From positions 1 through 64,000 of IMG/VR virus record IMGVR_UViG_3300025626_000013: a DNA stretch of 64,000 nt. One strand, given 5' to 3'. This DNA comes from a virus (lineage: Duplodnaviria; Caudoviricetes). Shown here one piece after another: positions 2,245 to 57,273 of this stretch; the first letter of the stretch is position 1; each line of letters opens with the position of its first letter. Position numbers and translations under genes: made by a program. The notes below the pieces were generated by a model, which was not told the origin of the DNA, searched no databases, and was given only the letters and a program-made list of their open reading frames with translations.

Positions 2245-2281
2245 GTATAGCTCTCCACATTTTTAATTGCGCATTTGATAT

Positions 2282-2289
2282 TATTTATA
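2282..2289 (-). promoter_or_regulatory. T4-type late promoter TATAAATA
   Basis: Exact TATAAATA on the minus strand, about 38 nt upstream of the ORF start at 2244. Confidence 0.8.
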
Positions 2290-2323
2290 TCTTTTGCTAT
2301 CAGTAAATATATAAAATATCAGT

Positions 2324-28818: not shown

Positions 28819-31356
28819 TTATCCAACTGATATTGGAATATTTCCATTTCTAGCTATGTTAAAATTGCCGCCTTCATTTTTTGCAGCACTAAAATGCATA
28901 GGATCTTTTTTACTATTCCAATCACCGCCCCAACCTAAACCATGTTTTGCAGCAAGTTCTCTAATATTATTAGGCATATCTGTAACCATCCCAGCGCCAA
29001 ATGAAACACCATACTGAACATAATTTTGGGCTGGGTTAATATCAATTGCTGCTCCATGCGCATGCCAGCTTTTTTTACTTGAATTGGCGATATTTCTATT
29101 GCTATAACCATGCAATACTTTAAACTCATAACCAGCTGCTTCTAAATCATTAATTAATCCTTGGAAGTTCGGAACAAATACTTTAGCAATAGATGTTGAT
29201 AACCCATTCTTTGTTGTAATTTTGCCGAGTGGTCCATTATAAGAATTATCTGCTTGTGTATTTGAATTATTTACCGGCACATTTGGATCAGCTGGGTCAT
29301 ATGACATATCTACTACGCCAACATTTGGGTTAGTGCTAAACTCATTAGTTTGATCAAATTCATCTGATGTTAATAGTATTAAATCGCTCGAGCTCTGTAA
29401 TATGTCATTGTAATAAGTAGCAACATTCATTTTATAGGTATTAGTATATGATGAATTAATTTCTGGAGTGATCACCGCAATCTGCATATTCATTATACCG
29501 CTAGGATCGTAATCATCATATCTTAATTCAAGGGAATCAAAATAGCAAAAATCTTTTATAGCTTCAGCCATTTCAAAAGTTTTTTCATAATTTATTTTAC
29601 CGGCGGTATCATATACTTCATAAGCAATGGCCCGACCTTCTGTTGATAAATCAATAAATCCATTAGGTGTTAATTTTTCGGATTGAATTGGAATATAAAC
29701 CCCTTCCGCAACAACAAAATTAATATCATTTAATTTTTTTAATGTTTTAAATGTATTAAATATTTTAGTATGGGGCACAAGATTCTGCGCAATTCTTATT
29801 CGTTTTCCCATATCATCAATTTTCTCAATTGATTTTCTATCTCCTAATGACCCCATAAATTTAGAAATAGGAATATTTGTATCTAATTCGGTTTTCTGGG
29901 TTATTTCTTTAAAATTTGTAGGATTGAATTCTGGGCTAGGTGCAATGTTTACGGTTCTTGCCACTGCTTTTTCCCGCGGTTGAACTCGACTATATGGGTC
30001 AGACATTCCATTAATAGGTTCTGATTCAATTCTTGGTATTGAAACGCTAGTTTGACTCGTACTTCCACTTGGGCTAGTCAATCTAGCAAATTGCGGCGAC
30101 AAAACACCAAATTCAAATTGTTCTTTTAAAAATTCATCATTAGCTTTATTTAATGGATCTTTTAATTTAGCTCTTACTTCAGAAGTTGTTAAAATCCTAT
30201 CTGTTACTCCACCAGTAGGTGCAGTTTTTTCAATTGAATTTTTTAATTCTTCTGTGGGGTCAATGCTGATTTTTTTATATCCAAGCGATGAATTTTCAAC
30301 ATATTGCTCCATATTAGTAGCTGTCGGTTTTGCTGATTGTGCATTGTTTCGTTGTACATTATTAATTCTAACCGATGCACCGCCGCCGCCTAAACCGGCC
30401 GATACATTTGCACTCACGGCTCTTAAAGCATCACCAGACAAGTCTCCAAAGAAAGTATCCGCAAACATTGCTTTAGCAGAAACTGTTTCGGCATGAACTG
30501 TTTTTTCTGTATAGGAATTAAAATTATACATGTAAATGCCTTGGCCGCCAATAGTTCCGGTGCTGCCAATAACAGACATGTCCTGCGCCGCAATATTCAT
30601 ATTTGGTGCAGTTTGAATAAATTCATTTGCGGCAGTAATATACAAATTATCACCAGCATGTACTTCTATTTTATCCTCCGATCTTAAAGTATATTTACCC
30701 TTTACCGAATCAATAACTGTACCAAGTGTTGTTGAAACATAATTTCCAATATTAGTAATGTTTTTACTTTTTTGAACGATCTCTTGCCAATGTCCAACAA
30801 TTTTTTTACGATAATCGCCTAAAACATTAATCATCCAGCTTCCACCAACTCTTAAATAAAAGTCGCCGCCAACATCCATATCTAAATCGCCGGAAACATT
30901 TAAGCTAAGGTTTCCATAATAAGTTAAATGACCATCACCTTCAACAGCCATATAATAATTATCATCTACTATTTCAACTCTATTGCCTTTAGAATTTATT
31001 AAAATTGTGCCATCTGGTTTAATATCAATACCGGCACCAATTGTATGTTTTAGCAATATTCTTTCATTGGCTAATGTGTCATTAAATTCAAAAACATGTC
31101 CTGCTGGCGTTTCATGAACATCATTTAAAGGATATTGAGCAGACAGCGGCGCATTTAAATCTAAATCTACAAATGGAATTCCATTTGATATATCTAATTT
31201 ATGGAATTTAGCATTTCTTGCAGCCAAATTAACAGAACTTTGATGCCAATATTCTGGTTTAGGGTATGTACCTGAACCTTCTACAAACCCATTAGAGTTT
31301 GACATTATTTGGCTTTCGCTTATAATTGCTTCTTCTTTTTCAAAATTTGTTGTCAT
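28819..31356 (-). CDS. gp5 C-terminal (spike) part fused to an M15-family peptidoglycan peptidase
   Basis: YPLNDVHETPAGHVFEFNDT...ERILLKH gp5 motif; C-terminal SWHAHGAAIDIN...WGGDW...DPMHF zinc-peptidase signature. Confidence 0.8.
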   Translation of the reverse strand: MTTNFEKEEAIISESQIMSNSNGFVEGSGTYPKPEYWHQSSVNLAARNAKFHKLDISNGIPFVDLDLNAPLSAQYPLNDVHETPAGHVFEFNDTLANERILLKHTIGAGIDIKPDGTILINSKGNRVEIVDDNYYMAVEGDGHLTYYGNLSLNVSGDLDMDVGGDFYLRVGGSWMINVLGDYRKKIVGHWQEIVQKSKNITNIGNYVSTTLGTVIDSVKGKYTLRSEDKIEVHAGDNLYITAANEFIQTAPNMNIAAQDMSVIGSTGTIGGQGIYMYNFNSYTEKTVHAETVSAKAMFADTFFGDLSGDALRAVSANVSAGLGGGGASVRINNVQRNNAQSAKPTATNMEQYVENSSLGYKKISIDPTEELKNSIEKTAPTGGVTDRILTTSEVRAKLKDPLNKANDEFLKEQFEFGVLSPQFARLTSPSGSTSQTSVSIPRIESEPINGMSDPYSRVQPREKAVARTVNIAPSPEFNPTNFKEITQKTELDTNIPISKFMGSLGDRKSIEKIDDMGKRIRIAQNLVPHTKIFNTFKTLKKLNDINFVVAEGVYIPIQSEKLTPNGFIDLSTEGRAIAYEVYDTAGKINYEKTFEMAEAIKDFCYFDSLELRYDDYDPSGIMNMQIAVITPEINSSYTNTYKMNVATYYNDILQSSSDLILLTSDEFDQTNEFSTNPNVGVVDMSYDPADPNVPVNNSNTQADNSYNGPLGKITTKNGLSTSIAKVFVPNFQGLINDLEAAGYEFKVLHGYSNRNIANSSKKSWHAHGAAIDINPAQNYVQYGVSFGAGMVTDMPNNIRELAAKHGLGWGGDWNSKKDPMHFSAAKNEGGNFNIARNGNIPISVG

Positions 31357-32888
31357 GATATATCTCCCAAAATTTGAGCTGTTGTAGGAGCACCTTTTGT
31401 TGGATCAAATTTATTTTTTCTTTTAAACATTGAAGGCAACCATTCTTCTGGCCAATCGGGATCTTGTTGGGTGCTTGGTTTCATATCCATATGTCCATAA
31501 ATTTCTCCGGCGTCCCATACACTATAAAAGCATTCAGCAATTAATTTAAAAGTTTTTGCTTGAGCATCACTATACCACCGTCCGCCGTATGGATAGCCCT
31601 GCGTACTAAATTTTTCGCCTAATTCGCTTTGCCAATATTCTCGAGTAAGTCCTATGCCCCCGACGCCAGCAACGCCTATTGTTCGCTGATCCATATCTTT
31701 CACATGATTGCCTACTATATTTACTGGTCGACCTCTTTGAATTCTACCATCAGATAAAATAATATAATGATATCCAATACCAGAATAATTATATGGCGGA
31801 TCCATATGCATATCATGTATATGTTGGGCAGTAATCACAGAATCATTTTTAAAATGACCTGTCCAATGATTTACCAATGTTGTAATTTCACGATTCTCTT
31901 TTGCAAAATTAAAATCTGCTATAAGTTCTTCTTTACCAGCAACAATAGGAAATCTATATGGCATATTGGCAGACTTAGTACTAGTTTGATATCCAGCAAA
32001 TTTTTGCGAGGTGGTAATCGGTGCTGTACTTATTGCTGGATTCGGAATTGAATTGCCATTTGTAGTATTAGCAGTAATACTAGTATCTATTCCAGCAACA
32101 GCTTCTTCAATTTCTTTAATTTTTGCGTCACTGCGTTCATTTAATGGTAATGCTTCTATAATTTTATTAATAGCCGTATTCTTATCGCCATTTATAACTA
32201 GCGGAATAATTTTAGATTTTACTTCATCATTTAAGTTTAAAAAAGATATAGCATTTTCAATTTCATTATTTTTTGATGATGAATAAGTTGCTAAGAATCC
32301 AGCACTTTCTGTTAAATTTTTATAATTGTTATTAACTGATCCTAAAATAGAATTAAGTATGGCTAAGCGAGACTGAGTTAACGCATTAGTAGCACCGGGC
32401 ATAGCAGCATTATAATTAGAAGTAATAAATGTTTCGCTTGCTTGTGCATTTGTTTCAATTGGAATAAACGGAGAAATTATATTAAACGGTGCCTTTGTAT
32501 TTGTCACTTGACTTAGTGCATTAGCCATTGCAAAGGGTTTACCTAAAGTAAGAATGAAATTATTTTCGCCATCTCCTACCAGGGAAGATGAGGTCATTTT
32601 AGTAATATCTTGTTTTTCACTTGTTGCACTTCTTAATATATTTTCATAGCCAGGTACAGCTGGGGTAAATTCTACAACTTTTGCATCCGGTATACTTATA
32701 TTTTTTGATTTAATTTCTGGTAAGGATTGAGTATAGTTTAAGATACCGTTTACCACTAATCCTATTTCATTAAAAACTTCGTCTTCTAAATTTTTTAATC
32801 CATAAACACCCTTTGCTACATTAATAATAGGGGTATCGCCTGGAAATCTTGCTGCCAAATTTCCAAGTAATTGTGAAATAGTACTCAT
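31353..32888 (-). CDS. Baseplate-associated N-acetylmuramoyl-L-alanine amidase (Amidase_2)
   Basis: VNHWTG, GIGYHYII..DG.IQRGRP, GNHV, TIGVAGVGG, YGHMD and DP. Confidence 0.8.
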   Translation of the reverse strand: MSTISQLLGNLAARFPGDTPIINVAKGVYGLKNLEDEVFNEIGLVVNGILNYTQSLPEIKSKNISIPDAKVVEFTPAVPGYENILRSATSEKQDITKMTSSSLVGDGENNFILTLGKPFAMANALSQVTNTKAPFNIISPFIPIETNAQASETFITSNYNAAMPGATNALTQSRLAILNSILGSVNNNYKNLTESAGFLATYSSSKNNEIENAISFLNLNDEVKSKIIPLVINGDKNTAINKIIEALPLNERSDAKIKEIEEAVAGIDTSITANTTNGNSIPNPAISTAPITTSQKFAGYQTSTKSANMPYRFPIVAGKEELIADFNFAKENREITTLVNHWTGHFKNDSVITAQHIHDMHMDPPYNYSGIGYHYIILSDGRIQRGRPVNIVGNHVKDMDQRTIGVAGVGGIGLTREYWQSELGEKFSTQGYPYGGRWYSDAQAKTFKLIAECFYSVWDAGEIYGHMDMKPSTQQDPDWPEEWLPSMFKRKNKFDPTKGAPTTAQILGDIS

Positions 32889-39301: not shown

Positions 39302-39480
39302 TATGGTCGAGTAATGATTCATTATATAATCATTATAAGACCAACTTTGGGTTAATGCAACATCATAATTATTCTCTACATGAGTTGGAGAATATGATGC
39401 CCTGGGAACGAGAAATTTATGTGGCTTTATTAATACAACACTTAGAAGAACAAGCAGAGAAAATTAAGAGGAAAATGTAA
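39301..39480 (+). CDS. gp51: Baseplate hub assembly chaperone gp51 (probably reached by -1 frameshift from gp26)
   Basis: Hand translation IWSSNDSLYNHYKTNFGLMQHHNYSLHELENMMPWEREIYVALLIQHLEE; the first in-frame ATG (39355) lies inside the conserved motif. Confidence 0.8.
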   Translation: MWSSNDSLYNHYKTNFGLMQHHNYSLHELENMMPWEREIYVALLIQHLEEQAEKIKRKM

Positions 39481-41594
39481 TGGCTACGTTAGCAAATATT
39501 AATGCCCGGCTCTCAGCTGAGAATGGAGACTTGCAAATAGATCTTGCAAGCCTGGCCGAAAGCATTTCCATACTAGCCGCAAATACTTCACAAACTAATA
39601 ATAGTATTTCATCAAATCAATCTCTTTATTCTTTAACATCACAATTTGATTTATTCATAGATAAACAAGAAGAACTTATTAAAGCTGCCACTCTTTCGAA
39701 CGCACTTCTTACGGATATAAAAAAGAGTGGTATATCTGGCAAGATGTCTTTTGGTAATCGTATTAAAGAACAATTTGCAAATAACCCAATAACCAGAGGT
39801 GCTGCAGTAACTGCTAATATTTTAGGAGCTCCTCGTCGCGCATTGGGCGGCATTATTAATAGCGCTAAAAATATAGCAACTATTCCAGGGCAAATGCTAG
39901 GCGGTGGTCTTGATAAAGCTAAGACAGCAATAAAAGGTGCATTAAAAATGCCATTTACTGCTGTTGGCAATGCATTCCAATCAAAAAGTGTAAAAACTCT
40001 TGTTCTGTTAACAGAAAATAATATAGACATTCAAAAAGATATATTAAATGAATTAGTTACTTTAAATAAAACTATTGCCGATTATATTAAGGCCAAAAAA
40101 CTAAAGAATTTAGACAATCTCGAAGATCAGCGCGAAGCTAAAAAAATAGTCAATCGCGGTTTATTTGCTTCTGCCCTTGGTAATAGTAATAATCAAAATA
40201 ATGAAGACGAAAATGCTGGCAAGAGCGGAGAGGGATTATTTAGGAAGCTGGGTGGTTGGCTATTAAAAGGGGCCGGCTTAGGGGTTGGCTTAGGTGCACT
40301 TAATAAAATTAGAAAAATGTTTAAAAAACCTACTGCACCAAAAGCAAAGATTGGCTCAACCCCAAAAGTAAGACCCACTAGTATTCCAAATGTACCTAAA
40401 TCAGCGCCTACTGCACCGAAATTATCACCACCAGCTATACCGCCTAATTCATCCACTGCGCCTAATTCATCCACTGCGCCTAAATCAGCGCCTACTGCAC
40501 CGAAATCAGCACCTACAGCGCCTACTGCACCGAAATCAGCACCTACAGCGCCTACTGCACCGAAATCAGCACCTACAGCGCCTACTGCACCGAAATTATC
40601 ACCACCAGCGCCTACTGCACCGAAATTATCACCACCAGCTATACCGGCTAATTCATCTACTGCGCCTAAATCAGCGCCTACTGCGCCTACTGCGCCTAAA
40701 TCAAACCCGCCAGCTAATTTAAATGTAAAACCTACGCCTAAAGCGGCTTTAAATAAAGCAATAAGACAACAATTAATTAAAGAAGCGACTGAAAAAGCTG
40801 CAGCAACTGCCGCTCAAATAAATGCCGGAAAAACTGCAAAAGCATCTCTAGCAGCGGCTGAAAAAGCCGCATCAAAAGCCGCATCAAAAATAGCCGCAAA
40901 ACAAGTGGCAAAAGCAGCTGCAAAGTCCGCCGCTAAAAAATTGCCATTTGGCCTTGGCCTTATACCTGCTTTAGCTTTTGCAGTAAGTGAAGTTATGCAA
41001 GGAGATTTCACAGGCGCCGCAATGGAAATTGCATCTGGCACAGCGGCAATTTTGCCGGGACCAGGAACAGCTGCATCAGTCGGTATTGATGCGGCTATTT
41101 TAGCTAGGGATTTAAATAGCACAGACCCAAATGTTGAAAAAAATGAAAAAATAGAAAAGGCCAAAAAAGATTCGGTTCAAACCAAATTAAATGAATTTGA
41201 TGCCGACCAGGCTAAAAAGAAAACATTGTTAATACACGAAGCTTCTAAAGATGTTGCTAAAAGAGCTGACTATGAAAAGGCCGGCATTGCCGCAAAAGAA
41301 TTAGTAAAAAAAGTAACTATAACTAAACCTGTGATATCTTCTAATGAAATAATTATAAATGTAGCCCAGCAAAAAATATCGGCAAATCTTTCAAATGATC
41401 AAACCAATTTATCACAAAGGTTACAAGAAGCCCAGGGAACTTTTGATGAAGTAAAACAGCAGGCAAATACTACTGTAATAATGCCTGCTGTTCCAAATAA
41501 TATTGATAATAGTTCAACTAGTGTTAGTCATACAACACTTACTGCATCAGGGTCTAGCTCAATAGATAGATCCGATAAAGTAGTGCCCATTTAA
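39480..41594 (+). CDS. Putative tape-measure/hub protein (gp29-like) with Pro/Ala/Thr/Lys repeat insert
   Basis: Ala/Gly/Lys-rich helical protein after gp26/gp51; KKLPFGLGLI...GDFTGAAMEIASG...PGPGTAASVGID segment. Confidence 0.6.
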   Translation: MATLANINARLSAENGDLQIDLASLAESISILAANTSQTNNSISSNQSLYSLTSQFDLFIDKQEELIKAATLSNALLTDIKKSGISGKMSFGNRIKEQFANNPITRGAAVTANILGAPRRALGGIINSAKNIATIPGQMLGGGLDKAKTAIKGALKMPFTAVGNAFQSKSVKTLVLLTENNIDIQKDILNELVTLNKTIADYIKAKKLKNLDNLEDQREAKKIVNRGLFASALGNSNNQNNEDENAGKSGEGLFRKLGGWLLKGAGLGVGLGALNKIRKMFKKPTAPKAKIGSTPKVRPTSIPNVPKSAPTAPKLSPPAIPPNSSTAPNSSTAPKSAPTAPKSAPTAPTAPKSAPTAPTAPKSAPTAPTAPKLSPPAPTAPKLSPPAIPANSSTAPKSAPTAPTAPKSNPPANLNVKPTPKAALNKAIRQQLIKEATEKAAATAAQINAGKTAKASLAAAEKAASKAASKIAAKQVAKAAAKSAAKKLPFGLGLIPALAFAVSEVMQGDFTGAAMEIASGTAAILPGPGTAASVGIDAAILARDLNSTDPNVEKNEKIEKAKKDSVQTKLNEFDADQAKKKTLLIHEASKDVAKRADYEKAGIAAKELVKKVTITKPVISSNEIIINVAQQKISANLSNDQTNLSQRLQEAQGTFDEVKQQANTTVIMPAVPNNIDNSSTSVSHTTLTASGSSSIDRSDKVVPI
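40395..40703 (+). repeat. In-frame VNTR (30-bp and 18-bp units; PTAPKSA, APNSST)
   Basis: About five 30-bp units cagcgcctactgcaccgaaat... at 40486-40639, plus 18-bp gcctaattcatccactgc units. Confidence 0.9.
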
Positions 41595-42594: not shown

Positions 42595-42840
42595 TTATTC
42601 AAAGATAAGTGCGTTTTGTTTTGGTAAAAAGTTTAAAGATTGTGCTTCAGCTTCTACTTTTTCTTTAATAACCGGTGAGATATATTTTTTTACATCTTCT
42701 GGGTCAATGCCTGTTTCTTTACAAGCTTCTACAATAGCATCAATCCAAGTTAATTTTTTTTGAATTGCATGCTTTTCAATAATTTTAGTAAATTTAGATT
42801 TATTCATAAATTCTTTATCAATAATTGGTTTATCAATCAT
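42595..42840 (-). CDS. gp33: Late promoter transcription co-activator gp33
   Basis: FTKIIE, WIDAIVEAC, ISPVIKEKVEAEAQSLNFL. Confidence 0.88.
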   Translation of the reverse strand: MIDKPIIDKEFMNKSKFTKIIEKHAIQKKLTWIDAIVEACKETGIDPEDVKKYISPVIKEKVEAEAQSLNFLPKQNALIFE

Positions 42841-45099: not shown

Positions 45100-45927
45100 T
45101 TATTCCGCTGATACATCTATTTCAGAAATTTCTTGTCTAAGTTTTGCAAATCTATCTCGATTTTTCCAATCTCCGCCGGTTATACCGCGCACACCATGAA
45201 TACCAATTGTTGGCATAGCATAGTTCGAGGCTTGTTCTAATACGGCGGGATTGCCATGTTCATCAATAAAAGGATATTCTGTACCATTTTCAAAGCGGTT
45301 AGATTCAATATACGTATGGGTTGTAGCACCATACTCTTCAGACAATAATGCAATATCGTCAAGATGATCCTGGTTATGTTTGTGAATAACTGTTTTATGA
45401 TCAATTTCAACTGCTTTACCGCCAGCCTCAGCTAATGCTTGCATATTAGCTAAAATTTTGGATAAAATTGTTTTGCGTCTATACATATTTTGCATTTCTT
45501 GATTAACGCCCTCGATTGCAAAACTAATCCGCAATGGATGGCGACCAACATATTTTTTAGCTATAAGACCAAGTTCTTTCCACCATATAACACTTCTTAA
45601 ACTGCCATTGGTATCAATTCTAATATTAGCGTCAGTCTTACATTCATAAATATATTGTATTATTTTAGCAATGTCTTTTGCCATAAAGGGATCACCCCAT
45701 GTGCCACAAATTTCCCATACATTAATCATAGAAATAATATGCGGTGGATATGCAGCTTTAAATTCATCTAGCGTCCATTGTACAAGTGGTAGCCAATCAA
45801 TTTTACCTAATCCACCACTTTTATTATCAACTCTATGGCATTGCGGGCAACCCGCATTACAAAATGTAGAAATATCTAAAAATACCTGGAGTTTATTGTT
45901 TTTTAAAATATCGCTATATGTTGGCAT
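45100..45927 (-). CDS. Radical SAM protein (core only, no SPASM)
   Basis: CNAGCPQC (CxxxCxxC), CGTWGDP, TNGS, FAIEG. Confidence 0.85.
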   Translation of the reverse strand: MPTYSDILKNNKLQVFLDISTFCNAGCPQCHRVDNKSGGLGKIDWLPLVQWTLDEFKAAYPPHIISMINVWEICGTWGDPFMAKDIAKIIQYIYECKTDANIRIDTNGSLRSVIWWKELGLIAKKYVGRHPLRISFAIEGVNQEMQNMYRRKTILSKILANMQALAEAGGKAVEIDHKTVIHKHNQDHLDDIALLSEEYGATTHTYIESNRFENGTEYPFIDEHGNPAVLEQASNYAMPTIGIHGVRGITGGDWKNRDRFAKLRQEISEIDVSAE

Positions 45928-48666: not shown

Positions 48667-49032
48667 TTATTTTTCTTCGTCAAAAAGACAAAAGCGAATA
48701 CATTGCTCAGCAACGTTTTCACCATTTTTCCATGATTCTGGAAGTGTTTTAGTAAACCACTCATGTTCAACAATTTCTTCGAGTGGTTTGTTTTTAATAT
48801 TTAAATCATGAGCATTTTTTTTATACTCATTCATAAGATGCCCGACTTGCCAATCCGCAAATTGGGTACGGTATTCACTATTACCAAGATAACAACATGG
48901 CAATACTCCACCATCCGGATTAACTAAAATACGGTTATTTTCCATCCATTGGCATTTTACTTTAATTTCGCCACTTTCAAGCCGAGCACAGTTCTCATCG
49001 CTTATAATATAATCTCTATTATATTTTTTCAT
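48667..49032 (-). CDS. Stand-alone SPASM/Twitch-like Fe-S domain protein
   Basis: CQW...LVNPDGGVLPCCY...LNIKNKPLEEI...SW...CIRFC. Confidence 0.7.
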   Translation of the reverse strand: MKKYNRDYIISDENCARLESGEIKVKCQWMENNRILVNPDGGVLPCCYLGNSEYRTQFADWQVGHLMNEYKKNAHDLNIKNKPLEEIVEHEWFTKTLPESWKNGENVAEQCIRFCLFDEEK

Positions 49033-49360: not shown

Positions 49361-49858
49361 TTATTGACCATATGGAACGTCCACATAGACAGTATCACCA
49401 ACAGAATAAAAAGAATCTGAATAAATATAGCCACGCAAATTCTGGCGCTTCCAATGAATAATATATGTATATGATTGAGTTTCTACCGGAACATTAACTG
49501 TAGTACATACAGTTTCTGAACGATATCCAGATACAACCCGTTTATTACTGGTTTTATCTGCAGCAATAACAGCGCCAAAAATTGCTCCGGCCGCGGCACC
49601 TTTATCATTTCCGCTAACACCTTTACCAAGCAATCCACCAAGAATCATTCCAGCAAGAACATCTCCGCTATTAGATCCAGACTCAATATTGCGATAAACT
49701 GGAACATTTTGTAATGAGCATTGTTTTTGGTTTTGATATGATGTTTGCACTTGAGTAATTTTTTCAACATGCCAGACTTTAGCTGAACGTGTTACTGCAA
49801 ATGCCGCAGTACTTGCAAGACTGGCTATAACAGCCAATGGTATAAGTGATTTTTTCAT
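49361..49858 (-). CDS. Exported glycine-zipper protein
   Basis: Signal peptide; LAGMILGGLLGKGVSGNDKGAAAGAIFGAVIA glycine zipper. Confidence 0.7.
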   Translation of the reverse strand: MKKSLIPLAVIASLASTAAFAVTRSAKVWHVEKITQVQTSYQNQKQCSLQNVPVYRNIESGSNSGDVLAGMILGGLLGKGVSGNDKGAAAGAIFGAVIAADKTSNKRVVSGYRSETVCTTVNVPVETQSYTYIIHWKRQNLRGYIYSDSFYSVGDTVYVDVPYGQ

Positions 49859-49884: not shown

Positions 49885-49914
49885 ATTATAACAAATAAAA
49901 TACAGGATGTAAAC
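49885..49914 (-). promoter_or_regulatory. T4-type early promoter
   Basis: GTTTACA-N17-TATAAT, extended TGn. Confidence 0.8.
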
Positions 49915-49932
49915 AGTTAATTTCACTTTTAT

Positions 49933-49969
49933 GAAAATAAAGTGACCCACAATTTCTGCAGGCCACTTT
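49933..49969 (-). terminator. Intrinsic terminator after the endolysin
   Basis: AAAGTGGCCTGCA-gaaat-TGTGGGTCACTTT hairpin (13 bp including GU pairs) followed by ATTTTC. Confidence 0.6.
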
Positions 49970-49973
49970 ACTA

Positions 49974-50843
49974 TTATAAGAGTACTGCTAAAGTGGCTGG
50001 ACCAGCAATACCATCAGCAGTTAAGCCATTTGCGGCTTGCCATTCTTTTAATGCGCGCTCAGTGCCTGGACCAAATACGCCATCCGCACTAATACCCAAA
50101 GCTTCTTGCATCATTCCAACACCTGCGCCCTTGCAACCTTTACGTAGCACACCGATGTCATCTACATCAAAATCATCATCACCAGCATCTTCGCTAAGTG
50201 AAACCGGATTACCAAACACTTCCATTGCTTTTGAATATCTGCTTTGACGATCCGCAAGACCAATATTTCCGCCGTTAATTTTTTTTGTCATTTTCACAAC
50301 GTCATCAGTATCTGCAATAGCATTGAGGTTATTGGCATCCCAGAACCAGCACGCTGACTCTACAGCGCCCTTAGGTGTTGCTACATAGATTGCAGCTTCT
50401 TCTGCACTAATGCCAATGCTACGGCCAAATTTGGTATAATTTTCGCGACCAGTTAATTGCTTAAGCCCACGACCCCGAAATAACCAACCATCACCTTCAT
50501 TAACATTGCCCATTTTATATTTGCGGAATTCATCCATATAAACATAATTAGCAATTTTTTCGGGATTACGAGCATAATCAGCAGCATTGCGTTTATGTGG
50601 AGCTGAGCCAAAATAACGTCCAAACACTGCGTTGAGCGCTTTTTCACTATAGTTTAAATTTTCTGATAATGAGCGGAAATTATTAGATTCATGTGCACAC
50701 TGAGAAATAAAATGCGCAGCCCGTCGTTCAGTAGTAATATCATATTTGGGCATTATAGCAACTAACGCTTCATACCAAGAATCAATATCTTTATTACCGG
50801 GAATTAGCTGTGCAAGTTGTTCTTTTTGTAATTCAAAACTCAT
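49974..50843 (-). CDS. Endolysin: GH19 catalytic domain plus C-terminal PG-binding domains
   Basis: FISQCAHES, ENLNYS, FRGRGLKQLTGRENY, INGG..GL.DR; QEALGISADGVFGPGT and GLTADGIAGPAT. Confidence 0.92.
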   Translation of the reverse strand: MSFELQKEQLAQLIPGNKDIDSWYEALVAIMPKYDITTERRAAHFISQCAHESNNFRSLSENLNYSEKALNAVFGRYFGSAPHKRNAADYARNPEKIANYVYMDEFRKYKMGNVNEGDGWLFRGRGLKQLTGRENYTKFGRSIGISAEEAAIYVATPKGAVESACWFWDANNLNAIADTDDVVKMTKKINGGNIGLADRQSRYSKAMEVFGNPVSLSEDAGDDDFDVDDIGVLRKGCKGAGVGMMQEALGISADGVFGPGTERALKEWQAANGLTADGIAGPATLAVLL

Positions 50844-50863
50844 GGTTTATATCCTTTTCAATT

Positions 50864-51622
50864 TTATAAATTGTTTTTCAAGTTAGCTTCTATATTACTT
50901 ATATATCCATCAATTGAATGATCAGTTAGTGGATCGGCTGCTCCGGATGTCCAAATACCATCCAAAAATTCTTTTAATTTAAATAAAAGATTGCTTTTAC
51001 GTTCAACGCCTTCGGCGTCAAAATAACATTCTGTGCCATGGTGCTTATATCCCATAATTGCTAATGGAACCCGGCAAACAATATCATTATTATTTACCCA
51101 TCTCATATGTGGGGTTTGCAGATTTTTAGTATAGCCCTTTAATCCAACTCGTGGGGAGCCAAAGGTAAAAATTGCCATAGGATCGGATAAGTGTGCTGCA
51201 TTAAAACATCTTGAAGCCATAATAGTAGTCATGCCAGCCCCTAAGCTATGCCCAGTAAACCAAAGATCTCTATTTTTAACCGCGCCCACTCTAAGTTTAG
51301 ATTCTAGTAATGGCCATAAATCATCTGCTTCCGATTTAAATCCAGCATGAACTCTACTTTTAGATTCCGATTTTACTGGCCATGCATTTAAATCTGCTTT
51401 TAAATCATTTAATTCAGTTGGTTCTGTGCCACGACAAGCAATAACAGTATCATCAGCACTTTGAAAACGATAAGCTTGTGCTCCATCAGCATTATAAAAT
51501 TCAGCAAAATAAAAGCCTAATTTTTTACTTTCAATCTTAGCTTTAGTGGGCTTCATATATGCAATTTTTGAAAGCTTTGCAAATAATAATGCTTGTTCAT
51601 ATTTTGACATATTTCTTATCAT
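50864..51622 (-). CDS. Lipase class 3 (alpha/beta hydrolase)
   Basis: RGTE, VHAGF, TGHSLG nucleophile elbow, TFGSPRVG, NNNDIV..VP, DHSI. Confidence 0.9.
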   Translation of the reverse strand: MIRNMSKYEQALLFAKLSKIAYMKPTKAKIESKKLGFYFAEFYNADGAQAYRFQSADDTVIACRGTEPTELNDLKADLNAWPVKSESKSRVHAGFKSEADDLWPLLESKLRVGAVKNRDLWFTGHSLGAGMTTIMASRCFNAAHLSDPMAIFTFGSPRVGLKGYTKNLQTPHMRWVNNNDIVCRVPLAIMGYKHHGTECYFDAEGVERKSNLLFKLKEFLDGIWTSGAADPLTDHSIDGYISNIEANLKNNL

Positions 51623-51632
51623 TTTTCTGTCC

Positions 51633-53417
51633 TTATAAAGTAAGTATTCTACTCTTATCTATTGTAACTTCATCAACATTTTCATAATAAACAGTTTCTT
51701 CTTTTTTTACAGTTTTTGGTTTAGTAGAATTTTTATATTTTTTGAATCCCATATTTGCAGCAATTAATAGTAAAACTGCAAGTGGATCAAATACAGAAAT
51801 AATAATAATTATTACCCATCTGACAGCTTCTTCTAATAAATCTTCGGTTGCATCTTCTCTATAAATGAATTCTGCAATATATTTTACTGGTCCAACTTCA
51901 GTTTCGTATTTACGGTATTCAGATTCTAAATTAAATTTTTCCACATATAAAGATTCTATTTCGGAATTTTTTGCGATAATAGCAGCTTCTTCAATTGTAA
52001 TTGCATTAGTATTATCAGTAGTAATTCCAATTGATAAACTATTTCTTAAGCTAACAATTAAATTTTGACTTGCTAATATTTGGGCATTTACAGTCTCTCG
52101 TATTTGGTCTATTTTAACACGGGCTTCATTAATTTTAGCACTTTCTGTGTTTTGTAATTCTTTAATTGTATTTTGAGCTATAACTCTTTTATCCCTATTC
52201 TGAATAACAAGCGTATTTTCAATATTATCAATTTTTGCTTGTATATCATTTTGAACATTATTTAATTCTTTACTAGAATCTTTTCTGATATTGCTAATAA
52301 TATCTAATGCTTCTTGTTTTGAGTTATTTATTGATATCGACTGATTTCCTCTCAAGTCATTAATCAAATTGGCTAGCCGCTGTTTTTCATTATCTAACGC
52401 TGTTTGTGCAATTGATCTTAAATCTAAAATTTGATTTTGTAATTCAATAATTCTTTCTCGCTGAGATTCTATCCAAACATTATAAGCATTTCTAGTATTA
52501 TTACCAAATAGCCCATCAGAGGTAACACCAATCACTGCTTGGCCTTGCTGTATTTTATCTATATCTTTACTCTGTAGATTATTTGTTACTATAATAATTT
52601 GATCTTCAATTTTTGCTATTTGAATTGCAATAAGTTCTGCTGAACTATTATCAATTTTTAATGTTGATAGTTTTTCTTCGTATGCAGCAGCAGTTTCGTT
52701 TATTGTTTTTAATTCATTATTAAGCAATTCTATTTGGCTTAAATATGGCGCAGTTTTTTCTTCAATGCTAGAAACATCAGCATTATTTAATTCTTTTCTA
52801 TACTGATTAGTTAATGCAACCAATCGAATTAATTCATTATCAAGACTTTCAATATCCGCTTCAAAAGATGCAATTCTCTTCTGGCGATTAGAATTTTCGG
52901 TTTCAATAATTGCTAATTGTTCATTAATTTGTGGTTCAACTCTGGCATATGCATTGTTGATACGAAGTTGTTCTTTATCTAGTTGTTCTTGTATAGCATC
53001 ATTATTAGCAAAAGCATTTTCTCCTATAGTTATAATCTTTTCTTCGGATCGTGCTATAGCAGTTTTTAATCTAGCAATATCTTCATCAATTCTTTCAATT
53101 TTAGCCAATCCATCTTTAGCGCCGGCAGTTTGCTCAATATGAGCTTTAGACAAGAAGCCAAAAATACCCATGCTTGTAATAAACATAAGCAGCACTACCG
53201 AAAGTGTTAAATAAGATTTTAAAAGAAATGGGGTATTTTTCCAATTATCATATAACCAAGTAGCAGTTATAAGTTTACCAGCCTCTAATACGCCACCCAT
53301 AATAGCAACAGGAATAATAGCCGCTGCAAATATTGAGGTTAACCCAATTATTGAATAATATGCTGCAACTGCAGCAATTGCTAATGAGCAAATAAATGCT
53401 AAAATATTAATAAACAT
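51633..53417 (-). CDS. Membrane-anchored long coiled-coil protein with an internal PG-binding-like motif
   Basis: Three N-terminal TM helices and one C-terminal TM (VFDPLAVLLLIA); coiled coil between them; QAVIGVTSDGLFGNNT motif. Confidence 0.7.
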   Translation of the reverse strand: MFINILAFICSLAIAAVAAYYSIIGLTSIFAAAIIPVAIMGGVLEAGKLITATWLYDNWKNTPFLLKSYLTLSVVLLMFITSMGIFGFLSKAHIEQTAGAKDGLAKIERIDEDIARLKTAIARSEEKIITIGENAFANNDAIQEQLDKEQLRINNAYARVEPQINEQLAIIETENSNRQKRIASFEADIESLDNELIRLVALTNQYRKELNNADVSSIEEKTAPYLSQIELLNNELKTINETAAAYEEKLSTLKIDNSSAELIAIQIAKIEDQIIIVTNNLQSKDIDKIQQGQAVIGVTSDGLFGNNTRNAYNVWIESQRERIIELQNQILDLRSIAQTALDNEKQRLANLINDLRGNQSISINNSKQEALDIISNIRKDSSKELNNVQNDIQAKIDNIENTLVIQNRDKRVIAQNTIKELQNTESAKINEARVKIDQIRETVNAQILASQNLIVSLRNSLSIGITTDNTNAITIEEAAIIAKNSEIESLYVEKFNLESEYRKYETEVGPVKYIAEFIYREDATEDLLEEAVRWVIIIIISVFDPLAVLLLIAANMGFKKYKNSTKPKTVKKEETVYYENVDEVTIDKSRILTL

Positions 53418-53448
53418 TAATGACTTTCGTATATAAGTAATGTATACT

Positions 53449-53456
53449 TATTTATA
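53449..53456 (-). promoter_or_regulatory. T4-type late promoter (lysis operon)
   Basis: TATAAATA about 32 nt upstream of 53417. Confidence 0.8.
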
Positions 53457-53473: not shown

Positions 53474-53662
53474 TTATGCTTTTTCGCCCAAAACAAATAC
53501 GCAACCAGCTTCGTAATTGGGCGGAAAAAATTTACCATCTCCGCCTAGCATTAAAGATAATACTGATCTATTGTATATACATTCATCAGGAGTAGCATAT
53601 AGACCAATAGTCGATGCGTCTAACTTACCGCTAACAAATACCACATAAACTAATGCCCACAT
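53474..53662 (-). CDS. Small exported Cys-pair protein
   Basis: MWALVYV...EC...GCV; RBS agga. Confidence 0.5.
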   Translation of the reverse strand: MWALVYVVFVSGKLDASTIGLYATPDECIYNRSVLSLMLGGDGKFFPPNYEAGCVFVLGEKA

Positions 53663-53674
53663 TTATTTAATCCT

Positions 53675-54205
53675 TTAATCCCATAGATTTTCATAGAAAC
53701 GACCAAATAATTTAAATCCATCAGTCATTCTACCTTGATGCGCTATAGCATCTTCATTATCCCATTTATAGTCATATTCAGATATCCAACAATCTTTGCA
53801 TTTTTGTTCAAACGCCCAAATCATTTCGTCTAAAATATTGTCCCATTCTTCTTCACTTAATTCATGTGGATAACTATGCTTTGTTTCTTTTAGCTGTTTA
53901 AGCATTGGTAATATAATCAAAGCAAGCGTATTATCCATACTCCATGTATCCCATGGATCTATACGAACCTTAACTTTTTGTACTCTTTTGTCTAGCCACA
54001 ATCGATTAATTACATCGTATACTGACTGTACAGCATTTTCAATTTTTTCAAGAAGCATTTCTTTAAACGGTTCTTGAACTGGTAGTAGTCCCTTTTGTTT
54101 ATAATCAGGCCGTAACTTTTTCAGAGCATCATATTTTTTATCCATATAATTTGTATGAATATCACAAATCAATCTATCTGGATATTTTTTAATCCGTACT
54201 TTCAT
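53675..54205 (-). CDS. Conserved phage hypothetical protein
   Basis: IDPWDTWSMDNTLALIILPMLKQLKETKH...WDNILDEMIWAF...NLWD. Confidence 0.7.
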   Translation of the reverse strand: MKVRIKKYPDRLICDIHTNYMDKKYDALKKLRPDYKQKGLLPVQEPFKEMLLEKIENAVQSVYDVINRLWLDKRVQKVKVRIDPWDTWSMDNTLALIILPMLKQLKETKHSYPHELSEEEWDNILDEMIWAFEQKCKDCWISEYDYKWDNEDAIAHQGRMTDGFKLFGRFYENLWD

Positions 54206-54220
54206 AGCATATTCCTTAAA

Positions 54221-54228
54221 TATTTATA
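54221..54228 (-). promoter_or_regulatory. T4-type late promoter
   Basis: TATAAATA about 16 nt upstream of 54205. Confidence 0.65.
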
Positions 54229-55126: not shown

Positions 55127-55203
55127 TGGTACTCCCCGAGGGACTCGAACCCCCAACCTAAGCGTTATGAGCACTCAGCTCTAACCAATTGAGCTAGAGG
55201 AGT
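55127..55203 (-). tRNA. tRNA with CAT anticodon, probably Ile2 (otherwise elongator Met)
   Basis: Full cloverleaf, loop CTCATAA, encoded CCA; C4-G69 and C5-G68 pairs fit TilS/Ile2 determinants. Confidence 0.9.
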
Positions 55204-55208
55204 ATATT

Positions 55209-55292
55209 TGGTGGGGGGTAATGGAATCGAACCATTCGTGAGTCACCTCGGCGGAGTTACAGTCCGCTGCCACACCTTGTAGCATACCCCCC
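55209..55292 (-). tRNA. tRNA-Tyr(GTA)
   Basis: GCGGA-CTGTAAC-TCCGC anticodon arm, long variable arm, CCA. Confidence 0.92.
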
Positions 55293-55303
55293 GATTATAT
55301 AAT

Positions 55304-55364
55304 TGGACCCTTATTCATTATCCGATTACCGGCAGTCTATATCAGGTCTCACCCGCTGGAGGGT
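55304..55364 (-). ncRNA. Candidate small structured RNA ending in CCA
   Basis: ACCCT/AGGGT terminal stem plus CCA and two internal hairpins; GC-rich within an AT-rich spacer. Confidence 0.35.
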
Positions 55365-55373
55365 GTAGTGTTT

Positions 55374-55402
55374 TGGTATGAGTGGTGTGATTCGAACCCA
55401 CA
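55374..55402 (-). pseudogene. tRNA 3'-half remnant (T-arm, acceptor strand, CCA)
   Basis: GTGGGTTCGAATCACACCACTCATACCA with no 5' half. Confidence 0.6.
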
Positions 55403-55411
55403 TTATTCTTT

Positions 55412-55543
55412 TTAGCGATCTTTAATTTCATAAACTTCTTTATAGATATTACCAATATCTTTTGCCCCTTGATTATAACCAACAAGCCATCCAATTGCGC
55501 TGCCACAAATAACTAAACAACCAGCAATTAAAACCATTTCCAT
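55412..55543 (-). CDS. 43-aa membrane peptide
   Basis: Hand translation MEMVLIAGCLVICGSAIGWLVGYNQG...; RBS ggag. Confidence 0.55.
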   Translation of the reverse strand: MEMVLIAGCLVICGSAIGWLVGYNQGAKDIGNIYKEVYEIKDR

Positions 55544-55569
55544 AGTAAACTCCATTATATATTTTTAAT

Positions 55570-55644
55570 TGGCTCCCCAACTTGGATTCGAACCAAGGAC
55601 ACACGGATTAACAGTCCGATGCTCTACCGCTGAGCTATTGGGGA
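55570..55644 (-). tRNA. tRNA-Asn(GTT)
   Basis: Cloverleaf, loop CTGTTAA, ends GCCA. Confidence 0.93.
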
Positions 55645-55670
55645 ATATTATAATATTATATATCTTTTAA

Positions 55671-56291
55671 TTAAGATGATGTTTCGAGAGAATTGCCATT
55701 TTTATCACATTCAGTAATAACTGGATTACAACGCATTTCAAAATAATTTTCTACAAAAGTCCAACCCAATGCTTCAATACCTTCTTGATAGTCTTCATCG
55801 TACGTCGCTTCAATTTCGTCTATCATTTTATCAACATCTGAAAGCTTAGGTCCACTTGTTCTAATGTCCCAAATGTCTTCCCAAAAACAATCATCTACAC
55901 AAATCATTTCGGCATCTGGATAGTCTTCAGTAATATCAACATATTCCTCATCTATAGATGGTACTAACATTTTATGCATAATTTGAAATGGGGCCATATC
56001 CGGATCTACAATAATATTATTGGATTCATCAATAATATGAAACCCATGTTGATCAGCAACATCTTCAATATTATTATAATATTCAGAGGCATTAATCCAT
56101 TCAGCAATTTCGGCATCAGTTTCCGGCACTTCAATTAACCACTCACCCCAACGCCATCCCATTTCTTTTGAAAGATAGGCCCATTTACCAATATCTTTTT
56201 CATCGTTAGTTAATTCGTTAAGCGGGCGTTTAAAAGTATAAATTTCAGTAATAGCTTTTTTATAAGAAGATTCTAATTTATAATATTTCAT
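55671..56291 (-). CDS. Acidic hypothetical protein
   Basis: 206 aa; EMGWRWGEW motif; RBS agga. Confidence 0.65.
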   Translation of the reverse strand: MKYYKLESSYKKAITEIYTFKRPLNELTNDEKDIGKWAYLSKEMGWRWGEWLIEVPETDAEIAEWINASEYYNNIEDVADQHGFHIIDESNNIIVDPDMAPFQIMHKMLVPSIDEEYVDITEDYPDAEMICVDDCFWEDIWDIRTSGPKLSDVDKMIDEIEATYDEDYQEGIEALGWTFVENYFEMRCNPVITECDKNGNSLETSS

Positions 56292-56316
56292 ACTGTTAAT
56301 CCTATAATTAATTTGG

Positions 56317-56390
56317 TGGAGCGGGTAAGGAGAATCGAACTCCTATCATCAGATTGGAAATCTGAGGTCTTACCATTACACAATACCCGC
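56317..56390 (-). tRNA. tRNA-Gly(TCC)
   Basis: TCAGA-TTTCCAA-TCTGA arm, U73, CCA followed by a second CCA. Confidence 0.92.
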
Positions 56391-56437
56391 TTAATATTAT
56401 TCTTCCATCAACGATTTGAGTTTTTTAGCTTCTTGAG

Positions 56438-56789
56438 CTTGTTTTTCAATAGCTCTATTTACAATCCCAATATTCTACGAACAGCCACAGGATCATCGGT
56501 CATAATGCTGCCACCGTCATTCATCTGCTTCCCAATACCTACAATAAAAGTGTTTGCCACACGCATCAATCTCTGCTTGTGGATAACCTTGTTCCAACAG
56601 CCAAGGAATAATACTTTCATCTTCGAGGAAGTCTGCTGGCAAGGGCTTAGGAAACCCATACTTCCATCCGCTGGGCGGATCACACATCAATAGTTTCGAC
56701 ATCTTGTTTTTCAATAGCTCTATTTACAATCCCAATATTCTACGAACAGCCACAGGATCATCAGTCATAATGCTGCCACCGTCATTCAT
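56438..56789. repeat. 87-bp direct repeats (56438-56524 and 56703-56789, 1 mismatch) flanking one small gene
   Basis: cttgtttttcaatagctct...ccgtcattcat read twice. Confidence 0.92.
56517..56702 (-). CDS. Conserved phage hypothetical protein
   Basis: CDPPSGWKYGFPKPLP...WLLEQGYPQ...RYW. Confidence 0.65.
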   Translation of the reverse strand: MSKLLMCDPPSGWKYGFPKPLPADFLEDESIIPWLLEQGYPQAEIDACGKHFYCRYWEADE

Positions 56790-56939
56790 ATGCTCTACAA
56801 TTTGTTCAAAATAAAAGCGAGCATCCGCATCTTCATCCAAAAGGCTAGCTGCAGTTCGAAAGAAGTTACGTAACTTCATATCACTTGTGCCATCATTGGC
56901 CGCCGCTTTATATGTTTTACCTGGACGCTGATTACCCAT
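56724..56939 (-). CDS. Hypothetical protein
   Basis: 71 aa; RBS gaggag. Confidence 0.6.
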   Translation of the reverse strand: MGNQRPGKTYKAAANDGTSDMKLRNFFRTAASLLDEDADARFYFEQIVEHMNDGGSIMTDDPVAVRRILGL

Positions 56940-56955
56940 TTTTATCTCCTCTTAT

Positions 56956-57039
56956 TGGTACCCGCGGCCGGACTCGAACCGGCACGCCTTACGGCCACAG
57001 ATTTTAAGTCTGTTATGTCTACCATTCCATCACGCGGGC
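56956..57039 (-). tRNA. tRNA-Leu(TAA)
   Basis: ACAGA-CTTAAAA-TCTGT arm, long variable arm, CCA. Confidence 0.92.
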
Positions 57040-57045
57040 TAACTC

Positions 57046-57273
57046 TTATTTGTCCATCAATTCAGCTTTACGCTTTTCAACAGCTGCAAGTCGCTGTGCT
57101 TCTAATTCGATACCAGCTTCTTTATCACGACCCATAACCAGCAAAATGATTGCCGAAATAAGAGGCGAAATCAATAGTGTGACTACAAACCAAAGCCATC
57201 CATTTCGGCCCCAATTGTTAGCCCAATAGCCAACTAGTGCTGAAAACACTACTGCAATTAAAATAATATCCAT
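57046..57273 (-). CDS. Small membrane protein
   Basis: YWANNWGRNGWLWF...LISPLI; two hydrophobic segments. Confidence 0.65.
   Translation of the reverse strand: MDIILIAVVFSALVGYWANNWGRNGWLWFVVTLLISPLISAIILLVMGRDKEAGIELEAQRLAAVEKRKAELMDK

Follow-up and report, generated by a model that had tools for sequence, protein, structure and literature searches.

Lysis by marine T4-like phages is poorly charted, and a term search of a study on pelagimyophage genomics finds neither 'lysis' nor 'holin' (PMC7029224). Among the known proteins that resemble the one described here are the i-spanins of phages, such as lambda Rz and T4 PseT.3, which sit in the inner membrane by one N-terminal transmembrane (TM) helix, extend a coiled coil into the periplasm and contact a lipoprotein of the outer membrane through a free C-terminus; their genes lie near lysis genes. 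Peptidoglycan-binding domains of the PG_binding_1 and PG_binding_3 type occur in phage endolysins (KZ144, EL188, PVP-SE1gp146, 201phi2-1gp229), and PMC3352856 gives the consensus for Gram-negative phage endolysins as D-G-(Pho)2-G-K/N-G/N-T. Lipolytic lysis is represented by mycobacteriophage LysB, whose gene lies downstream of the endolysin gene lysA, and some LysB proteins carry peptidoglycan-binding domains (PMC8309991). Here, we describe a cassette in a viral record (Duplodnaviria; Caudoviricetes; IMGVR_UViG_3300025626_000013) that joins a standard GH19 endolysin, a lipase with relatives that travel with a small TM protein and wall hydrolases, and a member of a large family represented by CC594, a 594-residue phage-specific inner-membrane protein. 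The window analyzed is the first 64,000 nucleotides (nt) of this 83,948-base record, for which CheckV estimates a completeness of ~40%, with ~60% of the genome outside the record. The source phage is a marine T4-like myovirus, with genes for the baseplate wedge and hub, the tail tube, a gp32-like single-stranded DNA-binding protein, a gp33-like co-activator and dihydrofolate reductase, and with ribonucleotide reductase further on.

The cassette consists of three minus-strand open reading frames (ORFs) in series, separated by gaps of only 10 and 20 nt: the 594-residue CC594 (51633..53417), the 252-residue class-3 lipase (50864..51622) and the 289-residue GH19-type endolysin (49974..50843). All three genes named in the original prediction (a membrane coiled-coil protein, a lipase and a GH19 endolysin) are thus present where it had placed them. 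We interpret the cassette as a late-transcribed accessory lysis or envelope module with a peptidoglycan-binding tether, not as a complete lysis system, and assign this reading a probability of about 0.5. A T4-type late promoter box, TATAAATA (53449..53456, minus strand), lies 32 nt upstream of the CC594 start codon, within the 20 to 40 nt spacing of a T4-type late unit, and the phage encodes a gp33-like late-transcription co-activator (42598-42840, phrog_254, E 8.6e-19); gp55 did not turn up in the 84-kb record, where no search was aimed at it. The window contains no excess of this octamer (12 observed vs 19.6 expected). Eight of its 10 minus-strand copies sit 16-72 nt upstream of minus-strand ORF starts, as T4-type late promoters do.

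At the opposite end, an intrinsic terminator (49929..49972, minus strand) directly follows the endolysin stop codon, with a 16-bp stem and a U-run, UUUAUUUU (hairpin energy -21 kcal/mol, z -5.49; 0 of 200 shuffles equally stable). A sigma-70-like promoter (TTTACA-17-TATAAT, extended TG, 11/12 matches; 49885..49913, minus strand) starts the next unit and thereby marks the 3' boundary of the cassette. The two limits proposed originally, the TATAAATA box at 53449 and a terminator at 49933, are therefore both real, but the 5' limit may not be the outermost one. Two upstream genes, encoding 176-residue (phrog_11543) and 62-residue proteins (53474..54228, minus strand), lie behind a second TATAAATA (54221-54228), and a scan for a terminator-like site between 53418 and 53473 found none, so that the transcription unit may start earlier and the upstream genes may read through into the cassette.

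On the basis of its family hidden Markov model match and its homology to phage lysins, the 289-residue protein is a GH19 endolysin. It matches the endolysin family phrog_181 (E 1.4e-73) and carries a C-terminal PG_binding_1 domain (~234-289, encoded at 49977-50144; Pfam match at residues 251-288, E 1.5e-13). Glyco_hydro_19 (PF00182) reaches 23.1 bits, just below the 25.5 cut-off. The protein is 47% identical (E 1e-43) to a 'putative chitinase' adjoining the annotated holin of Flavobacterium phage immuto_3-5A. The endolysin has no detected signal peptide or TM helix and therefore needs a holin.

CC594 is organized as three N-terminal TM helices, a predicted periplasmic coiled-coil hairpin, a fourth TM helix and a K-rich tail. 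Hydropathy reveals hydrophobic stretches at residues 1-50, 62-92 and 530-558, which the AlphaFold2 model (58-sequence alignment A3, mean pLDDT 87.2) resolves into four membrane helices. The N-terminal three-helix domain (residues 2-91; 53145..53414, minus strand), delimited by the modeled helices and alignment A3, contains the family-invariant residues E45, K48, W54 and I80 to G87 (ITSMGIFG), and TM4 (about residues 530-556; 51750..51830, minus strand) contains the invariant D544-P545-L546-A547. The modeled helices span residues 2-29, 31-57 and 64-133, continue as further helices to residue 296, and resume at 306-519 and 525-564. The ~416 residues between the membrane segments are nearly all helical and are modeled as an antiparallel coiled-coil hairpin whose arms are joined by a loop at residues 297-305 (VTSDGLFGN). 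Averaged over the 58 sequences, the TM2-TM3 loop has a net charge of +1.64, the membrane-proximal flanks of the hairpin have net charges of -1.26 and -3.76, and the first 25 residues after TM4 contain 5.45 K+R. Under the positive-inside rule, this charge distribution places the termini in the cytoplasm and the hairpin in the periplasm, a location that should be taken as a prediction. The arrangement of three plus one TM helices around a coiled-coil hairpin proposed originally is thus borne out by hydropathy and modeling, with a hairpin of ~416 residues in place of the ~440 claimed. The topology and structure predictions that had been suggested as checks agree on a non-cytoplasmic (by charge), antiparallel coiled coil (by model).

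The model contains two low-confidence breaks, at residues 136-138 and 464-466, each ~165 residues from the tip; this pairing in opposite arms of the model looks like an elbow. Foldseek searches with the full model returned antiparallel coiled coils only (Rad50, SMC/MukB, dynein stalk, chemoreceptor). Like CC594, the dynein stalk, the Rad50 hook, the chemoreceptor hairpin and the MukB/SMC arms have a long two-helix antiparallel stalk with a motif at the tip and an elbow-like break. These matches define the fold class only (structural TM-scores ≤0.25) with no sequence relation, and the matched proteins are cytoplasmic. A predicted homodimer of residues 230-375 scored 0.00. With the i-spanins, CC594 shares its inner-membrane location, its predicted periplasmic coiled coil and its place near lysis genes. 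Unlike them, it has four TM helices and a hairpin that returns to the membrane, and the operon holds no lipobox ORF, which rules it out as the inner-membrane partner of a two-component spanin.

The tip of the hairpin (residues 286-315; 52473..52562, minus strand) consists of a helix, a DGLFGNNT loop and a second helix. The core motif, D301-G-L-F-G-N-N-T308 (52494..52517, minus strand), is flanked by modeled helices at 286-296 and 306-423, and its D and both G residues are invariant in a 38-sequence alignment (A2). It agrees with the endolysin consensus of PMC3352856 at 8/8 positions. Among 18 homologues of ~50% identity, G292, Q293, I296 to G305 (IGVTSDGLFG), N307 and T308 are invariant in all 18, so that nowhere beyond the membrane domain is conservation higher than in this stretch. 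In distant relatives the motif reads IxxLQxLVGxxxDGxYGPxTxxAV, closer still to PG_binding_1. The tip corresponds to helices one and two of a PG_binding_1/3-type domain and has neither the third helix nor a second repeat. Its common features with the endolysin domains are the consensus itself, an xxLQxxLG helix before it and a TxxAxxxW/F helix after it. The setting differs as well: the motif is attached to an enzyme in phage endolysins and is spliced into the coiled-coil tip of a membrane protein in CC594.

Three further comparisons point in the same direction. First, BLASTP aligns the CC594 motif to the peptidoglycan-binding domain of the endolysin encoded two genes downstream (E 2e-6, as a single-pair comparison). 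Second, a search of all PDB sequences with a profile of the 38 tips gave 11 matches at E≤1, 10 of which are peptidoglycan-binding proteins or wall enzymes (best E 9.7e-4), including SagA (7dnp), 1lbu, an L,D-transpeptidase, SleB and phiKZ gp144. Third, the position of the motif is constant. The pattern IxxLQxLVGxxxDGxYGPxT matches 47 of the 76 ORFs from viral contigs, with one spurious match (L057), and in 46/46 motif ORFs the N-terminal and C-terminal arms differ by ≤16 residues, whereas the loops range from 199 to 469 residues; equal arms across this range place the motif always at the tip. Loop lengths fall into discrete classes of ~102-104, 199-252, 269, 301, 332-335, 416 and 469 residues. 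The motif is absent from all 13 short forms (loops of 102-104 residues in 12 and 116 in one) and from some long forms.

The resemblance between the midpoint motif and the repeat of the endolysin, noted in the original prediction, is thus confirmed by alignment and by arm symmetry. Its proposal of an inner-membrane rod gripping peptidoglycan gains support as a prediction from the charge pattern, the modeled hairpin, the agreement with the consensus, the profile matches and the constant midpoint. In sequence terms, the CC594 tip is half of a peptidoglycan-binding domain and not a member by formal test: PGBD clan membership fails on sub-cut-off Pfam scores and on its content of one repeat, with two helices of a three-helix, two-repeat bundle. 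The tip is predicted to bind peptidoglycan. With its conserved TM core, its hairpin of variable length and this putative peptidoglycan-binding tip, the overall design suggests a physical link between inner membrane and wall.

CC594 belongs to a very large family. A profile of 13 short forms, searched against 1.84 billion representatives, retrieved at least 5,728 clusters at 50% identity with E≤0.001 (2,725 at E≤1e-30). A word-indexed search found 4,891 proteins at E≤0.001 among 8,000 candidates, and at least 593 IMG/VR stretches encode a relative. The nearest ESM Atlas clusters are unnamed and, where taxa are known, 98-100% viral. A 203-kb contig encodes an identical protein. Searches with tblastn located relatives in 13 records of cultured or assembled phages, including Pelagibacter phage Mosig, Flavobacterium phage immuto, Xanthomonas and Stenotrophomonas jumbo phages and Salicola phage SCTP-2. 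At the DNA level, the cassette has a single match among cultured phages, 155 nt in phage Mosig. Members reach 928 residues. Many of the longer homologues (alignment A1, columns ~830-880) have a cytoplasmic tail of acidic, low-complexity sequence that closes with a conserved WKxxNPxxTxKxxKxxYIxGKIxxLPWE...QNxEQ motif; CC594 does not have this motif-bearing tail.

No family in the Pfam, PHROG or NCBIfam copies used scores above threshold on CC594. Some homologues carry precomputed PF27984 and PF25887 assignments, which may already be DUF entries for this family; the local Pfam copy returns neither and does not contain PF27984. DUF4407 (PF14362) and Tetraspanin (PF00335) have the same topology, in which TM helices are followed by a large extracytoplasmic loop and then by a final TM helix. 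CC594 has no DUF4407 match (two homologues score 25.7 and 27.8 bits vs a cut-off of 31.3) and reaches 23.7 bits for Tetraspanin vs a cut-off of 32.1. DUF4407 is without known function, and judging by titles and opening lines of abstracts, none of the three papers listed for it deals with phages; Tetraspanins are eukaryotic proteins with a cysteine-rich globular loop. A literature search on DUF4407, pelagimyophage lysis and lipases in Gram-negative phage lysis cassettes returned nothing on the CC594 family.

Gene neighborhoods were examined in 80 viral loci of the family, of which 76 contained the membrane-protein gene; collapsing the loci at 70% identity gave 61 lineages. ORFs were called from ATG starts at ≥45 residues by greedy non-overlapping selection, a procedure that misses an overlapped o-spanin. 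A Hydrolase_2 (SleB-like) wall hydrolase with a signal peptide is encoded within three genes in 22/76 loci (19/61 lineages), and 30/61 lineages have some envelope-targeted neighbor. In cultured phages, the Mosig homologue directly follows a 'putative glucosaminidase', and in immuto a GH19 enzyme and an annotated holin are encoded six genes upstream of the homologue (immuto35A_85), in the same orientation. The XacN1 homologue sits among replication genes. Other recurrent neighbors include S21, IF3, ClpX/ClpP, GMP reductase, an SNase-like nuclease, DNA polymerase, UvsX, DnaB and gp59. A positional analogy with T4 gene 40, prompted by relatives that adjoin uvsX or the gp41 helicase, was considered and dropped.

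Further neighbors were recorded in these loci. Two unnamed lipoprotein families, found in 13 and 14 loci, are encoded just upstream of the membrane-protein gene (L012:4729-5972; also L013, L015, L016, L028, L031, L033, L042 and others); one is ~170 residues long with an LGAC lipobox, the other ~160 residues with LSAC or LVGC, and neither matches Pfam or NCBIfam. A ~130-residue cytoplasmic protein of no known family is encoded immediately downstream (+1) in 35/76 loci (e.g., L004:8219-8611) and is absent from the window cassette. In the window, the unit that follows the cassette encodes a secreted 165-residue glycine-zipper protein (49361..49858, minus strand), a separate transcription unit under the sigma-70-like promoter. 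Its homologues are encoded near genes of the CC594 family in four lineages: in L027, L036 and L038 they immediately precede the membrane-protein gene, and in L064 the homologue is the second gene upstream of it; the L036 homologue matches the Rick_17kDa_Anti glycine zipper (E 7e-7).

A number of observations weigh against reading the cassette as a lysis or envelope module with a peptidoglycan tether. At the tip, PG_binding_3 scores only 13.2-14.3 bits on CC594 and 14.6-20 in 4/14 relatives (cut-off 24.6), and Pfam does not report PG_binding_1 there. When the tip is folded alone (pLDDT 95.8), the best Foldseek match has an E value of 2.2, with the peptidoglycan-binding structures 7dnp and 2nr7 at ranks 3 and 5, and VIA-align gives Z ≤4.1 overall and 2.7 for 7dnp. 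An arm of ~205 residues would measure ~30 nm if straight (0.15 nm per residue), which exceeds the spacing normally found between inner membrane and wall; to accommodate it, the rod would have to bend at the elbow, tilt or extend past the wall. In the neighborhoods, 42/61 lineages have no peptidoglycan hydrolase within three genes, and the motif is uncorrelated with hydrolase adjacency (12/37 vs 7/24). Homologues of the window lipase occur in 0/80 loci of the CC594 family and GH19 enzymes in 1/80, and in one 182-kb contig the lipase and membrane-protein genes lie 40 kb apart. The synteny survey proposed with the original prediction thus places wall hydrolases near the family in 19/61 lineages and separates it from the lipase and GH19 genes. 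The genes of most relatives are packed 0-50 nt behind, for example, an SNase-like nuclease, DnaB or gp59, and TATAAATA occurs within 80 nt upstream of only 1/76 relatives (background 28/1184 ORFs), which makes late expression a feature of the source phage and not of the family. Finally, four RNA libraries from two studies contain the stretch as assembled contigs, two of which span the whole 12 kb evenly; such contigs cannot show transcription, strand or operon ends.

Part of this evidence would also be explained if CC594 had no role in lysis and were an envelope factor, such as a superinfection-exclusion protein or an envelope-stabilizing tether, that came to lie beside lysis genes by chance in a hyperplastic region. 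Consistent with this, the family is found among replication, Clp, translation and metabolic genes, often beside lipoproteins and secreted glycine-zipper proteins; the late promoter is absent in 75/76 relatives; and the short forms (13/76) and some long forms have no peptidoglycan motif. In the source phage, by contrast, CC594 has a late promoter and forms one unit with the endolysin. Moreover, the family occurs by three non-homologous wall-hydrolase types in distant phages: GH19 (the source phage and immuto), Hydrolase_2 and the Mosig 'glucosaminidase'. With ~200 genes per genome, three such associations are hard to obtain by chance placement. We regard a non-lysis role as unlikely, while giving it appreciable weight.

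As judged from its sequence, the second gene encodes an intact cytoplasmic Ser-Asp-His class-3 lipase (Lipase_3, PF01764, E 2.8e-19, 69.9 bits vs a cut-off of 22; phrog_21992). The GHSLG motif spans residues 124-128, and Ser126, Asp180 and His235, the presumed catalytic triad, are invariant over 23 distinct homologues. No signal peptide, hydrophobic N-terminus or TM helix was detected. The window lipase resembles mycobacteriophage LysB in being a GxSxG serine hydrolase encoded next to an endolysin. LysB, however, has a cutinase-like fold and acts on the mycolyl-arabinogalactan ester, a bond that Gram-negative hosts do not have, whereas the Pfam match of the window enzyme is Lipase_3 and not cutinase; a LysB-type assignment was accordingly rejected.

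Lipase neighborhoods were examined in 39 related viral loci, 37 of which contained the lipase ORF. In 26/37, a homologue of a 92-residue single-TM protein, described below, is encoded within ~1.5 kb downstream; Hydrolase_2 adjoins the lipase in 9/37 and a CHAP-like lipoprotein in 2/37. Homologues are present in three cultured-phage records; in the two with examined neighborhoods, Cylindrospermopsis phage Cr-LKS4 and Salicola phage SCTP-2, the contexts are not lysis contexts. The latter two cases would fit an auxiliary metabolic enzyme that draws energy or precursors from scavenged host lipids and whose place in the operon reflects late expression only, as would the lack of a detected signal peptide or TM helix and the heme oxygenase and bilin reductase genes upstream of the lipase in 9/37 loci (L097, L098, L107-L110, L112-L114). 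Such a function is harder to reconcile with the position of the gene between CC594 and the endolysin at gaps of 10 and 20 nt, with its linkage to the 92-residue protein (26/37) and to wall hydrolases (11/37), or with the precedent of LysB as a lipolytic lysis enzyme (PMC8309991). A purely metabolic role thus appears doubtful, and we favor a contribution of the lipase to envelope breakdown within the accessory module.

No holin or spanin is recognizable inside the operon, as stated in the original prediction, but a spanin pair of the Rz/Rz1 type is encoded elsewhere on the contig. It lies 25 kb from the cassette, outside the window, together with the gene for the 92-residue protein (G000:C1 77597-78680, equivalent to L083:13597-14680). 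The i-spanin (171 residues; L083:14165-14680, minus strand) combines an N-terminal TM helix with a coiled coil and matches 'Rz-like spanin' (8e-8, 5e-6). The o-spanin (131 residues; L083:13879-14274) is a lipoprotein with an LMAC lipobox (phrog_812, 'Rz-like spanin', 1.2e-5). The two genes overlap by 110 nt, and the pair shows all three features of two-component spanins. A strict lipobox scan of all ORFs gave no match, and the o-spanin was recognized by reading the ORFs beside the i-spanin gene. The pair contradicts, for spanins, the proposal that the lipase replaces holin or spanin function; canonical spanins elsewhere had been named at the outset as grounds for rejecting that proposal. Directly after the spanin pair, the 92-residue single-TM protein (L083:13597-13875) belongs to no family and is the leading holin candidate; it had no match in the 80 membrane-protein loci. 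Together with this small TM protein, the spanins and the wall hydrolases, the lipase makes up a set of lysis genes that are only loosely linked and are reshuffled from one related phage to another.

Another possibility is that CC594 is itself the holin or a hole-forming part, in effect a giant holin whose peptidoglycan-bound hairpin sets or senses timing in the manner of the periplasmic domain of T4 holin T. The CC594 gene opens a late operon in which the endolysin lacks an export signal; CC594 is the sole membrane protein of that operon and has a lysine-rich cytoplasmic tail. In addition, a scan of ORFs from the 84-kb contig yielded no PHROG-labeled holin, and the T4 holin-T family (PF11031) has no match in the ~40% complete record, a search in which control genomes were unmatched too. 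CC594 resembles T4 holin T, and holins in general, in residing in the membrane, in being encoded alongside an endolysin (in the source phage, behind a late promoter) and in having a cytoplasmic tail that is charged. Holins are usually under about 220 residues and are poorly conserved. By contrast, CC594 has no PF11031 match, is three or more times larger and has a very conserved membrane core, and the late promoter is absent in most of its relatives (75/76). At 594 residues and four TM helices, with relatives of up to 928 residues, it is far above known holins and does not qualify as a small membrane protein, though its tail is charged. The CC594 membrane core hardly varies between phages that infect Alphaproteobacteria (Mosig), Gammaproteobacteria (Xanthomonas and Stenotrophomonas jumbo phages) and Bacteroidota (immuto). 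Phage immuto has a separate annotated holin beside its GH19 enzyme, the 92-residue protein by the spanins is a more conventional candidate than CC594, and only ~40% of the genome is in the record. A holin function for CC594 is accordingly quite unlikely.

Least probable is the self-contained, non-canonical lysis system originally proposed, in which a peptidoglycan-gripping rod and a lipase replace holin and spanins: the operon does lack a holin and a spanin and its endolysin an export signal, but this proposal fails on the overlapped i-spanin/o-spanin pair and small TM protein 25 kb away on the same contig, on the separate inheritance of lipase and CC594 (0/80 loci, and 40 kb apart in one contig) and on the 60% of the genome that lies outside the record.

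Under the preferred reading of an accessory lysis or envelope module, CC594, the lipase and the endolysin would all accumulate late in infection. The CC594 tip would anchor the inner membrane to the sacculus or position it relative to the sacculus, and a holin, for which the 92-residue single-TM protein is the leading candidate and CC594 a less likely one, would open the inner membrane. The endolysin would then cut the wall, the lipase would attack membrane or lipoprotein acyl esters and so speed the breakdown of the envelope, and the separately encoded Rz/Rz1-type spanins would deal with the outer membrane.

A broader proposal concerns the family as a whole. We tentatively suggest that CC594 represents a very large unnamed class of phage proteins in which a nearly unvarying four-helix membrane core carries a periplasmic coiled-coil 'ruler' of quantized length, usually tipped with half a peptidoglycan-binding domain, and that this class constitutes a new lysis-control or envelope-coupling device. 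If so, the family would link the inner membrane to the sacculus mechanically, either gating or timing the access of endolysin or protecting the envelope of the infected cell, and CC594 would have been recruited, along with the lipase, into the endolysin operon of the source phage. Control of lysis timing or envelope integrity by this family would add a new component beside the holin-endolysin-spanin scheme and would annotate thousands of 'hypothetical' ocean-virome genes. Two members, in Flavobacterium phage immuto and Pelagibacter phage Mosig, occur in cultivable phages, which makes the family testable.

Several other features of the window are separate from the cassette. Six tRNA genes (Met-CAT, Tyr-GTA, Asn-GTT, Gly-TCC, Leu-TAA and Arg-TCT) are encoded on the minus strand at 55127-57441, and the RNA-library contigs pile up and break at this cluster. 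Among early-type genes, a radical-SAM-like protein (45103-45927) and a small SPASM-domain protein (48667-49032; PF13186, 8.5e-7) may form a peptide- or nucleotide-modifying pair. The GC content rises to 0.49 at 2001-4000, compared with ~0.33 elsewhere, inside a 729-residue gene adjoining the long tail-fiber gene. Wall-hydrolase domains are also found in structural or tail-associated proteins (28822-32888 and 39480-41591), for example in a gp5-like hub with an endolysin-type domain, a 511-residue protein with an amidase match and a 704-residue protein with a peptidase or endolysin match; these tail-associated wall hydrolases are entry enzymes, distinct from the GH19 endolysin.

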